Of a DNA stretch of 36,084 nt, positions 9,062-13,392 are shown piece after piece; positions within the stretch are counted from its first letter, which is position 1; each line of letters starts with the position of its first letter. The stretch is from an uncultured Methanospirillum sp. Its GTDB lineage: Archaea; Halobacteriota; Methanomicrobia; Methanomicrobiales; Methanospirillaceae. The notes below the pieces were generated by a model. The model did no database searches. It saw nothing but the letters and a program-made list of their open reading frames with translations, and was not told the origin of the DNA. The stretch spans positions 1 to 36,084 of the forward strand of contig CAZWTX010000028.1 of NCBI GenBank assembly GCA_964637135.1, read 5' to 3'. A program made the translations under genes and the position numbers.

Positions 9062-10339
9062 TCAGAATACCAGGAATTCGAGCAGGATCGCAACCAAAAA
9101 AATCCCGACTCCGGCAATGGCGATCGGGATGGTATAATTTTTCACCACCGTCCTGATGTCGTCTCCGGTTGTCCGCTGGACCAGCCAAAAGAAGGGGTCC
9201 GTCACGTAGGAGAAGATGCATGAGCCGGCACTGATGAGCAGAATCAGGGGTATCGGGTGTATTGCAGCGACGATTGAGGAACCTGCAAGGATCTGTGAGG
9301 CAATCACCGCGGTTACTACCCGTGAACCCTGGGCGGTCTCGATGAGTGCGGCGAGGATGAACGGGATGAATATCGCCGGGATAAGGAGAGTGAGCTGGTC
9401 GAGGGTCATCTCTGCAAACCCGCTGTGTACGATCACGAACCCGAGGGCGCCTGCCCCGCAGATATCAAATATGATCAGGCCGGCATGCTTTGCCCCGAGG
9501 GTAAGTCCCGGTGCCCTGACCGACGGGGGTGCCAGGGCGATTGCCGTTGCGGCACCGGCGAGCATGATGACGGTGATCATGCCTGACTGGGAGAGGTGGA
9601 GAACGAACAGGGAAATGGGGATTGCAACCATGATCACGATGAATGGAGCCCAGGCACGCCAGTGTATTCCTCCGGTTTCCAATGCCGGTGCCGACGTATC
9701 ACCGACATTCCCCTCCCCGTTTCCTTCCGGGAATGATCCCTCCGACCGGGTACCCCGGAAGTACAGGAGAATTCCCCCGAGGATGAGCAGTGATATCGGA
9801 ATAACCACGGCATCATAGAGAAACGGACTCATTCCCCCGGCAAATGCATTGTAGAGGGGAATGACCACCGGTGTTGGGTACACAAGGGCGTACGAGATGA
9901 TTCCGCCGACAGCAGCCATGTAGAGGAGCACGTTTCGCCGGATGGTATCTTTCTCAAGGCTCTCAAGGATCGGATTGAGCATGATGTACGCGGTGATGCA
10001 GCAGGTAATCGGAATTGAGAGGAGGTACCCGGCAAAACCGGCTAATATCGGAGGATTTTTGATAACCCGGCTGATGTCAGCAACGATATCTGCGGTCTGA
10101 TGCTGTTCCTGCAGAAGTTTTGCAATAACCGCCCCACAGAGGATGATGATACCAAAAGCCGAGAACACCTTTCCGATACCCGCGGTGATCCCCTGGATGG
10201 TCTCATCGGGAGTCATCCCCACGAGAAGCCCGAAGAGGATAGCCCCCCCTGTCAGGGTAAAGAACGGGGATATCCGGTACCAGATGCTGACAACCGTGAT
10301 CAGGGCAAGGGTGATGACAAATGCAATGAGGGGATCCAC
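9062..10339 (-). CDS. GntP family (gluconate/organic acid:H+) permease
   Basis: Polytopic membrane protein with ALVYPTP, LIETAQGSRVVTA and SYVTDPFFWLV motifs. GTG start. Confidence 0.9.
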   Translation of the reverse strand: MDPLIAFVITLALITVVSIWYRISPFFTLTGGAILFGLLVGMTPDETIQGITAGIGKVFSAFGIIILCGAVIAKLLQEQHQTADIVADISRVIKNPPILAGFAGYLLSIPITCCITAYIMLNPILESLEKDTIRRNVLLYMAAVGGIISYALVYPTPVVIPLYNAFAGGMSPFLYDAVVIPISLLILGGILLYFRGTRSEGSFPEGNGEGNVGDTSAPALETGGIHWRAWAPFIVIMVAIPISLFVLHLSQSGMITVIMLAGAATAIALAPPSVRAPGLTLGAKHAGLIIFDICGAGALGFVIVHSGFAEMTLDQLTLLIPAIFIPFILAALIETAQGSRVVTAVIASQILAGSSIVAAIHPIPLILLISAGSCIFSYVTDPFFWLVQRTTGDDIRTVVKNYTIPIAIAGVGIFLVAILLEFLVF

Positions 10340-10576
10340 AGGGAGTATTGCTATGAAGAGGAGAAAAATGAATTGAAACTATTATCTCTCCTCTGAATCT
10401 CTCGTTTCAGAAGTATTTACCTTCCTGCCGGGTTGTAACCAGATACCATATCCCTTCTTTCCCGGCTTTATAGTCGGAATAGATCCGGCTTACTCTCATT
10501 AGTGGCTGGTGGTCGATACCATCCCATGGTCATATCGCTGTTAACGTGGGTTCGTACGATGCTGTCACTTTGGTTC

Positions 10577-10831
10577 TTACATAAACAGGATAAGCAGGGC
10601 GACAACAAATCCGAAGATGATGATCGTTTCGGGAAGCAGGGTGAGAACAATACCGGTTCCCAGGAATTTTTTGTCTTCAGCGATGGCTCCGACTGCTGCT
10701 GCACCGATGCCCATCTCTGCATTTCCTGCTCCGATCCCTGCAAGTCCAAGTGAAAGACCTGCTCCGATTGTCTTCAGTCCTGTACTCATAGTCGTTTCGT
10801 TTAAGAGTGCTGTTGCTATTTCTCCAACCAT
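10577..10831 (-). CDS. atpK: A/V-type ATP synthase proteolipid subunit K (c), single hairpin, orphan copy
   Basis: 84 aa: GAGLSLGLAGIGAGNAEMGIGAAAVGAIAED...LLPETIIIFGFVVALL, with a Gly-rich helix 1 and the ion-binding Glu in PET. ATG 10831 follows GAGGAATAAAA and is preferred to the ORF-track start at 10861. Confidence 0.93.
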   Translation of the reverse strand: MVGEIATALLNETTMSTGLKTIGAGLSLGLAGIGAGNAEMGIGAAAVGAIAEDKKFLGTGIVLTLLPETIIIFGFVVALLILFM

Positions 10832-10996
10832 TTTTATTCCTCTGGTTTTTTGTAACTGCATTATACTCTGGTTGCCGGTGTGAGATCTGCAACCAGCCGG
10901 GATTACCTGGTTTCTCTATACTGCTGCTCCTGATCATGCTACTGATGCAATAAACGAGATATTTCCCGGGAACTCCCGGTGATATCTGATATCTGG

Positions 10997-11242
10997 TCAG
11001 GACACAGAGCCTTCGCTTTTCCAACTGGCCTGTGGGGTGGTGGTGATCATCGTGGTTACCAGGGTGCTAACATCATGGGAGAACTGTTCCTGGCATACAC
11101 CCTTCTGTTCAAGGATCATCTTCAGATCTGGTCGTATCTGTGACATTCCATCAAATATCAGGGATAGCAGTACGGCAATTTCAACGGGTTCGATCTCTGT
11201 TGCCTGGGTATCGTTTGTGTATGTTTTATCTTCTGTGTTCAT
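10997..11242 (-). CDS. Small protein homologous to the C-terminal helices of the adjacent TetR
   Basis: 31/51 identical residues, ungapped, to the TetR C-terminus. GAGGTAATC directly precedes the ATG and the frame is intact. Confidence 0.75.
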   Translation of the reverse strand: MNTEDKTYTNDTQATEIEPVEIAVLLSLIFDGMSQIRPDLKMILEQKGVCQEQFSHDVSTLVTTMITTTPQASWKSEGSVS

Positions 11243-11386
11243 GATTACCTCATTGGGAGGATTGACGCTCTATTCTATATCGATACGCATCGCTAATGCT
11301 GGATGATCTATGCCCGGTACGGGCAGGATGAGGGATCGATATACCCGTTTAGCCGATCCCTGACGGTGCAAAATTCTCTTTCATGA

Positions 11387-12070
11387 TCATCCTCCCTGAC
11401 CACCGGTACTGGTTTGTTTACTGGTTCCGGACCTGGTGATCATGGCGGTGATCAGGCGCTTGACATCCAGGGCAAATTTCTCTTTATCGACACCTTTGCT
11501 GGCAAGGATCATCACCAGGTCAGGTCTCATGTTGATGATACCATCCGAGATCAGGGTAAGCAGGACCGCAATCTCTTCAGGTTCCACATCTGATCGAATC
11601 GATCCTTCATTCATTCCAGCCTGTATTGCACTCAGAAACCGGGCATACATCTCTCCCACTAACCCGCCGATCTCCTGGATATCCTTGTTGGCCATAAGGG
11701 AGGCAGGATCAAACCTTCCTGACATCACAAAGGAGCAGCACTTCTGATAATCGGGATATTCCCGTGCGAATGTATCCCCGATATCACGATATGCAATAAC
11801 TTTCTCAAGATTCGTTGCAGCCTGGTCCATGGCTTCTTTCTGCATATTTGCGAGAATCCTGGTACCCCGAAGGACAATGGAAAAGAACAGGGCTTCTTTG
11901 TTCTCGAAGTACCGGTAAAGGGCACCTTTGGTAAGACCTACTTCGGCTGCAATTTCATCCATTGATACCATATCATAACCCTTTGCGAAGAACAACTTCT
12001 CCGCAGCATCGATGATGAGATTCAAGCGTTGCTCCTTCTCTTTCTCCTTGTATTCCTTCATGTCTGCCAT
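11387..12070 (-). CDS. TetR/AcrR family transcriptional regulator
   Basis: IIDAAEKLFFAKGYDMVSMDEIAAEVGLTKGALYRYFENKEALF is a TetR_N HTH. Confidence 0.96.
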   Translation of the reverse strand: MADMKEYKEKEKEQRLNLIIDAAEKLFFAKGYDMVSMDEIAAEVGLTKGALYRYFENKEALFFSIVLRGTRILANMQKEAMDQAATNLEKVIAYRDIGDTFAREYPDYQKCCSFVMSGRFDPASLMANKDIQEIGGLVGEMYARFLSAIQAGMNEGSIRSDVEPEEIAVLLTLISDGIINMRPDLVMILASKGVDKEKFALDVKRLITAMITRSGTSKQTSTGGQGG

Positions 12071-12081
12071 AATAAAACCCA

Positions 12082-12148
12082 GTAACCTTCATTCACGAGA
12101 GTGAATGTGAGTTACCTCAGTAACCAATGGTCGCTCATCCTATATAAT
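12082..12148 (-). promoter_or_regulatory. Putative tetR promoter/operator
   Basis: Minus-strand TATA-like ATTATATA (12141-12148), imperfect palindrome AGTAACC-aat-GGTCGCT (12119-12135) and inverted repeat GTAAC-ctt-CATTCAC-gaga-GTGAATG-tga-GTTAC (12082-12115). Confidence 0.55.
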
Positions 12149-12288
12149 TGTGAAACCTGTTGTTGTTTCACGACCTGTCGGGGATACCGTTCCTGTGATA
12201 CGGCCATCGCTGCCTTCTGCCATCCAAAAAAAGAATCGGAATGATACCTGTTCGAGAATAATTCCAGAGTTCAAAATTGAATGAGAGC

Positions 12289-13392
12289 CTATCCTTTCTG
12301 ATTCAATAGCCCTTCTCCCCGGGCATCGGCCGCTACCATGGCGTCGTACACCATCTCCGGGCTCACGGCAAACGGTTCACTGTCCATGAAATTTTCCGGG
12401 CTGCAGGCGGCGGTTGCAACCGCCATGAGGTCCTCCCGTGAGAGACCGGTCTCGCTGATATCGGCAAGGGTAACCGGTAATCCTACGCTGATACAGAACC
12501 GGATCACTTCGTTGATCTCATCCTCCGGCTGGTTTTCAAGCACCAGCTGGACGATCGTCCCGAATGCCACGAGTTCGCCATGGTACATCCGGTGGCAGGA
12601 GGGGAGGATTGTCAGGGCGTTATAGATCGAATGGGCACCGGCAAGACCATTGCTCTCGAACCCGACGCCGCTGAGGTAGATATTCGCCTCGATCACGTGT
12701 TCCAGTTCCCGGGTGCAGATCCTCTCTTCTGCCGACTCCTTCGCTTTCACCCCGTTCCGGATCAGGATATCGTAACAGATCCGGGAGAGTGCCAGCGAGG
12801 TGTACGTGTATTTTCCCCCGACGAAATTATCATGATCAGACATGGCATTCGCCCGTGCCTCGAAGTAGGTCGAGAGGGCATCCCCCATCCCGGCGACGAG
12901 GAACCTGACCGGGGCAGCAGCGATCACCTCCGTGTCAACGAGGACCATCTCCGGGTTTTTCGGAAGAAGGATGTTCCCGTCAAAGGCATGATCCTCGGTG
13001 TAGGTTACGGCAATGGCACTGGTCGGGGCATCGGTCGAGGCAATCGTCGGGATCGAGATCACCGGACCGCCTACGCGGACCGACACGCCCTTGGCGGTGT
13101 CGAGAGCCTTGCCCCCGCCGACCCCCACCGTCACCCGGCACCCGTGCTCCCCGGCAACTTTCACCAGCCGGGCGATCTCGGTTCTCGTGCATTCGCCGGA
13201 GAAGGGTTCGAATACCGCGGTCTTCCCGGTGACCCGGCAACTCTCCTCGATGACCGGTTTCAGGTTCCGGTACGCATATCCCCCCATCACAAAGAGAAAC
13301 GGTCCTTCAAATCCTGCGAGATGGTCTCCTATCCGGGCAAGTTCCCCTGGTCCCTGGATATATCGTCCCGGTGATGCGAGTATTCTGGTCAT
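12289..13392 (-). CDS. gldA: Glycerol dehydrogenase (family III metal-dependent alcohol dehydrogenase)
   Basis: SPGRYIQGPG, GVGGGKALDTAK, PTIASTDAPTS, AGMGDALSTYFEA, GLAGAHSIYNAL and YHGELVAFG. AGGAGG RBS upstream. Confidence 0.9.
   Translation of the reverse strand: MTRILASPGRYIQGPGELARIGDHLAGFEGPFLFVMGGYAYRNLKPVIEESCRVTGKTAVFEPFSGECTRTEIARLVKVAGEHGCRVTVGVGGGKALDTAKGVSVRVGGPVISIPTIASTDAPTSAIAVTYTEDHAFDGNILLPKNPEMVLVDTEVIAAAPVRFLVAGMGDALSTYFEARANAMSDHDNFVGGKYTYTSLALSRICYDILIRNGVKAKESAEERICTRELEHVIEANIYLSGVGFESNGLAGAHSIYNALTILPSCHRMYHGELVAFGTIVQLVLENQPEDEINEVIRFCISVGLPVTLADISETGLSREDLMAVATAACSPENFMDSEPFAVSPEMVYDAMVAADARGEGLLNQKG

Follow-up and report, generated by a model that had tools for sequence, protein, structure and literature searches.

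A small gene derived from the dimer interface of a neighbouring TetR-family regulator in Methanospirillum and its candidate role as an anti-repressor

TetR-family proteins are among the most numerous regulators of prokaryotes and a workhorse of synthetic biology, and small-molecule ligands are generally regarded as the means of their control. The locus described here raises the question of whether such a regulator could also be antagonised by a small protein made from its own dimer interface. The window, i.e. the whole 36,084-nt stretch of DNA from an uncultured Methanospirillum sp. that was analysed, carries on its minus strand the gene of a 227-aa TetR-family regulator (11387..12070; hereafter the parent TetR) and an open reading frame of 81 aa (10997..11242; the mini-ORF, or mini), with a spacer of 144 nt between the stop codon of the former and the start codon of the latter (11243..11386, minus strand). 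The original prediction was that the mini is a stand-alone copy of the TetR dimerisation region which could pair with the TetR and inactivate it.

The parent TetR was recognised by the Pfam family TetR_N (PF00440, E 6.4e-19, residues 19-64 of the 227-aa protein). In BLASTP, 35 of 68 residues of the mini were identical to the parent (E 4e-20), the homology being limited to TetR residues 160-227. Within this region, a segment of 51 residues could be aligned without gaps, with 31 of 51 residues and 99 of 153 bases identical and with synonymous codon differences at 15 of the 31 identical residues. The copied segment comprises TetR residues 162-212 (11435..11587, minus strand), and TetR 162-213 has its homologue in the core of the mini, residues 17-68 (11039..11194, minus strand), where selection on the mini is strongest. 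The core is flanked by a leader that is new and hydrophilic (residues 1-16) and by a short tail at the C-terminus. Neither Pfam nor NCBIfam returned any family for the mini, the HTH of TetR_N included, and a tblastn search with the whole TetR at E values of up to 100 gave, within 10900-11420, the tail match and chance matches only, with no remnant of the HTH or the ligand pocket and no trace of a TetR in the spacer. The start of the mini-ORF is preceded by GAGGTAATC-ATG, with the Shine-Dalgarno-like motif GAGGT (11247..11251, minus strand) 4 nt upstream of the ATG, and the minis of two further loci, L017 and L018, have GGAG 8 nt upstream of the ATG, so that a Shine-Dalgarno sequence is present in all three. 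The features on which the original prediction had been built, namely the gapless alignment with its 31 identities (the count was repeated), the lack of HTH and ligand pocket, the own RBS, a spacer that hides no TetR N-terminus and the differing codons at identical residues, were thus all confirmed. Lacking the HTH and helices 1-7, the mini, judged by its sequence, cannot itself be a TetR-type DNA-binding or ligand-sensing regulator.

A profile of the TetR subfamily matched the mini at profile positions 152-215 of 219 (E 2.3e-14). When the same profile was run against the 37,528 stop-to-stop ORFs of the window's genome, 11 were matched, i.e. 10 of 201-250 aa and the mini, and the parent TetR is the only one of the genome's 10 TetR-like genes with a tail-only second copy. 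The possibility that the mini is a pseudogene remnant of a full tandem TetR was rejected, as the N-terminal remnant is absent in every frame, and that of a copy of another TetR paralogue was rejected as well, the adjacent TetR being the closest one in the genome and the mini clade being sister to the parent group. Whether the mini is reached by read-through from the TetR, or is fused to it, was also considered and rejected: the two ORFs of the window are in one frame but are separated by 3 stop codons, and in L017 and L018 the coordinates place TetR and mini in different frames. P0118, described below, is the only copy that joins the two. A protein search for longer relatives of the mini found none among 14 candidates. 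The best score in the ESM Atlas was 0.77, to clusters without names that gave no lead, and a profile search of the mini alignment against the PDB gave nothing below E 0.29. For structured RNA, Rfam had no match at E<=1 in 10400-12400.

Eight copies of the mini are known, of which seven appear intact. Four of these are available as DNA (the window and the loci L016, L017 and L018, where L017 is the same contig as G223/L024) and three as protein (P0002, P0127 and P0128). P0002 has 85 aa and is 61% identical to the mini; P0127 (84 aa) and P0128 (123 aa, its start probably called too early) came from an exhaustive profile search. The eighth copy, P0118 (162 aa, protein only), is a single called ORF that runs from a TetR tail through a spacer into a mini copy. 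Behind FSHDVRQ its homology breaks off, for which decay of the locus, a fusion or a wrong assembly may account. No stand-alone mini was found in the 24 other genomes of the genus, in four of which the query matched solely tails that belong to full-length TetRs, with open frames between 216 and 268 aa; in the order, 2 of 401 sampled genomes had one (the window's genome G000, and G223). The parent TetR subgroup is itself small, with 9 orthologue clusters at 68-80% identity and the next ones at <=46%.

A search for proteins of similar length returned only the mini of the window and P0002, with no called protein for the copies in L016-L018. These copies may be missing as called proteins because an open antisense frame covers the mini: on the antisense strand, one frame is free of stop codons across the mini in 4 of 4 loci, with ORFs of 207 and 213 aa in L017 and L018, respectively. 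The antisense ORFs (207, 213 and 89 aa) were rejected as true genes, since no Pfam family was found in them and the window does not share the long one. Eight further short proteins (P0129, P0132, P0135, P0136, P0138, P0139, P0141 and P0142; 54-147 aa) resemble the tails of other TetR subfamilies, and some of them retain part of helix 7. They may be fragments from contig ends or further tail-only genes.

Selection on the mini was assessed by Nei-Gojobori dN/dS on the four copies with DNA. For the whole mini, dN/dS was 0.18-0.35 (0.24-0.30 for the three unsaturated pairs), and for the core of 52 codons it was 0.09-0.32, with pN below pS at one-sided Fisher p values of 3e-7 to 2e-3. In the unsaturated pairs, three in number, the leader was near neutral at 0.7-1.1. 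Values for the partner TetR were 0.12-0.14, and those for the third gene of the locus, described below, 0.02-0.21. The core of 52 codons is free of indels among lineages whose dS exceeds 1. The claim that selection acts on the protein, made earlier from the differing codons, is therefore borne out by values well below 1, and since dN/dS of the core is low, the core has no indels and the Shine-Dalgarno sequence has been kept, the sequences indicate that the mini is a real, conserved and selected gene rather than a decaying fragment.

The age of the mini was addressed with two trees. The first one contained 55 tails, among them 6 minis, over 63 columns, which limits its resolution, and left out seven long-branch rows; it supported the mini clade with 99/98, the 13 tails of the parent group with 99/98 and the two joined with 92/94. 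In the second tree, to which P0127 and P0128 were added and from which nine long-branch rows were left out, the clade of eight minis had an SH-aLRT of 89 and the joint clade of minis and parent tails one of 97. The sister position of the mini clade to the tails of the partner TetRs points to a single old partial duplication at the base of the parent TetR subgroup, after which repressor and mini would have diverged side by side.

The mini and its TetR are accompanied by a third conserved gene on which the original prediction was silent, a lone paralogue of the A/V-type ATPase proteolipid (subunit K/c; 10577..10831, minus strand; 84 aa, with an ORF extending to an upstream ATG at 10861). The order TetR, mini and 84-aa ATP-synt_C gene was seen in 3 of 3 loci that show both sides (the window, L017 and L018), in agreement with the orthologues and the conserved TetR-mini order that had been proposed as a check. 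L016 starts just upstream of the mini and shows the mini and the same 84-aa gene; the K-subunit paralogue thus follows the mini in 4 of 4 loci with DNA, while beyond the trio the gene content varies. The orthologues lie at 512-766 in L016, 10432-10686 in L017 and 2601-2855 in L018, and their start region GGAGGAA-N-ATGGTT is conserved across loci. Pfam assigned the third gene to PF00137 (ATP-synt_C, E 3.6e-14), and the LPET motif of the second helix is kept. The NCBIfam models for V-type subunit K gave <=52.7 bits, all under their cut-offs of at least 101 bits; by its sequence, the gene is therefore to be regarded as a member of the ATP-synt_C family and not as an equivalog. The canonical I-K-E ATPase cluster of the window's genome is located elsewhere, on contig C8, while C36 has a frame of 243 aa in which a K-like repeat occurs three times.

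Other features of the surroundings were observed as well. Alignment of the spacer at 10832-11010 (minus strand) with L016-L018 (alignment A7) gave an RNAalifold model with a long-range stem, which pairs the region of the mini stop codon with a position some 110 nt further downstream, and with a second, short stem that covers the start of the K-subunit gene; of 27 pairs, 3 were compensatory, and the covariation was weak (-0.44 kcal/mol). Genes for a leucine carboxyl methyltransferase (LCM) and an NADPH-dependent FMN reductase recur beside the parent TetR group and its nearest relatives (L017 10878-12586, L016 958-1692, and also L026, L027, L028 and L040). A related TetR is immediately followed by the LCM gene in L026 and L028, with neither a mini nor a K-subunit gene in between. 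In the window, a glycerol-dehydrogenase-like gene that matches NCBIfam NF006941 with E 7.9e-143 (12289-13392, minus strand) lies on one side of the trio, and on the other side lies a permease-like gene of the GntP family (9062-10339, minus strand); neither is conserved at the other loci.

Upstream of the trio, a TATA-box-like element, ATTATATA (12141..12148, minus strand), lies 78 nt before the TetR start. With TTTATAT at -80 in L017 and L018, a TATA-like element is conserved in each of the three loci. Operator-like inverted repeats of GTTAC/GTAAC (12082..12124, no strand assigned) lie between this element and the start of the TetR, among them one inverted repeat with arms of 15 nt (12082-12096 and 12101-12115), and the GTTAC/GTAAC block is conserved across the window, L017 and L018. 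Both GTAAC-N24-GTTAC and GTTAC-N4-GTAAC occur at one site each in the 2.8-Mb genome, upstream of the TetR. In the window, the spacer between TetR and mini contains a weak TATA-like ATATAGA at -38 that is not conserved in L017 and L018; no conserved TATA-like element was found in either of the two internal spacers of the trio, and a T-run of at least 5 appeared there only once, in L017. Because the internal spacers have neither conserved promoters nor conserved T-runs, we infer that TetR, mini and K-subunit paralogue may form one autoregulated three-gene operon. Two RNA runs from one study, probably a single data set filed twice and of a kind that was guessed, yielded no more than a fold-back contig of 252 nt covering 11170-11397 and a fragment of 35 nt, which weighs neither for nor against expression.

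What the copied segment does in the parent protein was examined on an AF2 model. The parent TetR was modelled with a pLDDT of 92.3 as an all-helical protein of 11 helical segments; the TetR family fold has about 9-10 helices. Foldseek gave 431 PDB matches at E<=0.001, and the best 40 or so of these 431 were almost all TetR-family regulators. In the model, the copied segment covers helices 164-179, 183-191 and 196-211 and corresponds to the predicted dimer interface. Typical TetR-family dimers are described as being held by a four-helix bundle, two of its helices coming from each protomer, and the family as two-headed homodimers that place two HTH heads on palindromic operators (PMC11667970). 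On the model, the copied segment is the TetR region that matches this four-helix bundle, as had been anticipated. The mini alone was modelled with a pLDDT of 56.7, with helices at 19-30, 38-46 and 51-68 and disordered ends. Such low confidence would be expected of a protein that needs a partner, and the shallow alignment of 5 rows could also explain it.

In a complex model of TetR and mini, which had been proposed as a check, the mini was docked on the TetR dimer helices with an ipSAE of 0.69 (runs of 0.00, 0.69 and 0.73) compared to 0.00 for the best of 3 controls, a result that may reflect likeness to solved TetR dimers. Of 157 solved complexes, 116 came up to the mark applied to such models, as did 2 of 215 mismatched pairs. 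The runs shared at least 2% of contacts with a partner pLDDT of at least 41 (42 in the run that scored 0.00). The predicted interface is formed by TetR 159-213 and mini 14-69, with 36 contact residues of the TetR and 33 of the mini, and it is pseudo-symmetric, 31 contact positions being equivalent and 16 of the 25 best pairs reciprocal or self. The mini is thus predicted to sit where the helices of the second TetR subunit would be. Since the mini is homologous to a much-crystallised interface, the pass of the complex model may be a memory of the many solved TetR homodimers.

The reading of the mini that is best supported by these results is that of an anti-repressor. The mini would pair with a TetR monomer and replace the second TetR subunit, and the resulting complex would be one-headed and likely unable to hold a palindromic operator, so that the mini would act as a titrating anti-repressor, as SinI does on SinR. 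We infer that docking on the TetR helices would lead to loss of DNA binding, because the TetR family works that way. TetR, mini and K-subunit paralogue would be transcribed from the single TATA/operator region upstream of the TetR, and de-repression would raise the antagonist along with the repressor and thereby sharpen or prolong the induced state of the operon. We hold this whole chain, from pairing to an inactive heterodimer and anti-repression, to be a tentative reading whose chance falls a little short of even; binding of the mini to the TetR, taken by itself and as judged from the model, is rated higher. Some observations speak against the anti-repressor reading. Should both genes share a transcript on which the mini carries the better RBS, it is difficult to see how the repressor could ever prevail, and the rarity and patchiness of the trio and the possible disruption of P0118 also count against it. 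The substitutions specific to the mini clade, among them Ser175 to Phe and Glu165 to Val, show no significant pattern with respect to the predicted interface: 3 of 30 positions inside it and 5 of 22 outside carry one (p 0.26; a second p value was 0.24), so that they do not cluster outside it and could equally serve self-association or another partner.

The first alternative is that the mini is independent of the TetR, self-associating into a small helical bundle that acts elsewhere, most plausibly on the K-subunit paralogue or the ATPase. Such a role would fit the position of the K-subunit paralogue behind the mini in all four loci, and methanogens are known to have small proteins that attach to energy-converting complexes of the membrane, e.g. 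MtrR and MtrI of Methanosarcina mazei. It would also fit the residues specific to the mini, which are more hydrophobic than those of the TetR tails, with an invariant Phe in place of Ser and an invariant Val in place of Glu. However, 12 of the 30 predicted interface positions are invariant and common to minis and TetR tails, the mini has co-diverged beside its parent TetR, and a K-subunit paralogue with 71% identity in G366 has neither a TetR nor a mini adjoining; we consider a TetR-independent role unlikely.

Alternatively, the mini may bind the TetR and modulate it, e.g. by stabilising monomers, altering the response to the ligand or allowing one-headed binding to the repeated GTTAC half-sites, and would in this way tune repression rather than relieve it. 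The docking model is the same as for the anti-repressor, the promoter region contains several GTTAC/GTAAC half-sites instead of one simple palindrome, and a mini that sits behind the TetR and is preceded by no conserved promoter would suit a stoichiometric partner. On the other hand, the family is described as acting in the form of two-headed homodimers on palindromic operators (PMC11667970), and the literature searched offered no precedent for a one-headed TetR complex that acts on DNA; a modulating subunit appears to us a rather improbable outcome. Least probable of all, and given little credence here, is a tolerated functionless leftover of a partial tandem duplication, perhaps translated, which would agree with the rare and patchy distribution, the disrupted look of P0118 and the almost neutral leader but is opposed by the intact frame and indel-free core in lineages with dS above 1, by the low dN/dS of the core, by the conserved Shine-Dalgarno sequence and by eight copies forming a clade as deep as the parent TetR group, a depth across which neutral decay would not preserve an open frame.

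For the anti-repressor reading, the closest parallels are found in other families. In Bacillus subtilis, SinI is encoded beside SinR, shares its oligomerisation surface, heterodimerises with it and abolishes its DNA binding (PMC3163267). The mini resembles SinI as a small protein encoded beside a repressor whose oligomerisation surface it shares, a likeness predicted for the mini from the model. SinR, however, is a bacterial Xre-type HTH protein with helical hooks, whereas the parent described here is an archaeal TetR; sinI is under its own Spo0A-controlled promoter, whereas no conserved promoter precedes the mini; and binding is proven for SinI and modelled for the mini. The mini has no Pfam match and its homology is to the TetR tail, so that it does not belong to the helical-hook family of SinI/SinR and resembles it in logic alone. 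In Agrobacterium tumefaciens, TrlR is a TraR paralogue without the DNA-binding domain which is thought to stem from gene duplication and which blocks TraR by forming inactive mixed dimers (PMC3907764). As for the mini, this is a paralogue of a regulator minus its DNA-binding domain with an origin in duplication, but TrlR belongs to the LuxR family, TraR is an activator while the parent TetR would be a repressor, the ligand-binding domain is complete in TrlR whereas no more than three helices are left in the mini, and TrlR is plasmid-borne and opine-induced.

An archaeal parallel is provided by DM1, a stand-alone RAM-domain protein that forms hetero-octamers with FL11 (Lrp/FFRP) in vitro and whose physiological role is described as unclear (PMC2995911). 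Both DM1 and the mini are paralogues of archaeal regulators reduced to the assembly domain; they differ in that DM1 is of the Lrp/AsnC family and is a complete ligand-binding domain forming octamers, and in that the mini, unlike DM1, is a tandem copy of its partner's tail. Eukaryotic microProteins such as Id and LITTLE ZIPPER are small, consist of a single domain akin to the interaction domain of larger factors, and draw these factors into non-productive complexes, and are defined as being <20 kDa, with a single domain and without the functional domain of the larger relative (PMC5381583, PMC9638782). With its 81 aa, its single homologous region and its missing HTH, the mini agrees with this definition in size and domain content; the known examples are eukaryotic and have other folds (HLH, leucine zipper), and no prokaryotic TetR example was met in the microProtein literature searched. 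Compared to ordinary TetR/AcrR repressors, of which the parent gene is a standard member, the mini is homologous to the last helices of the family but has no HTH and no helices 1-7. Its sequence places the mini outside the Sin, LuxR and Lrp families, and the absent HTH also excludes it from the TetR-type regulators. A TetR-family antagonist built from a TetR tail was not found among the top-ranked papers of the literature searches, which covered papers available without subscription. The earlier statement that no such TetR system is known in archaea agrees with these searches, but has to be qualified by the prokaryotic analogues SinI/SinR, TrlR/TraR and DM1/FL11 in other families.

These results suggest that the mini is an overlooked small gene derived from the dimer interface of its neighbour, by which an anti-repressor logic known from other regulator families would be extended to the TetR family, and the case shows how such small genes escape annotation. 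Further reaching, and rather doubtful as yet, is the proposal of a natural TetR-family anti-repressor that arose from duplicated dimerisation helices and is co-inherited as part of a self-contained switch for an alternative ATPase rotor subunit in methanogens. The candidate regulated gene, a lone ATPase proteolipid paralogue, is unusual and may hint at a conditional remodelling of the ATP synthase rotor. If the anti-repressor reading is true, a genetically encoded antagonist from the family's own dimer interface would add a protein-level layer of control to TetR regulation and would represent a dominant-negative design of natural origin, open to imitation for other TetR proteins. Tail-only TetR genes, as the eight further short tail-like proteins may indicate, could then form a wider overlooked class. 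The microProtein principle of SinI, TrlR and DM1 would likewise be extended to a further family of regulators and to methanogenic archaea.
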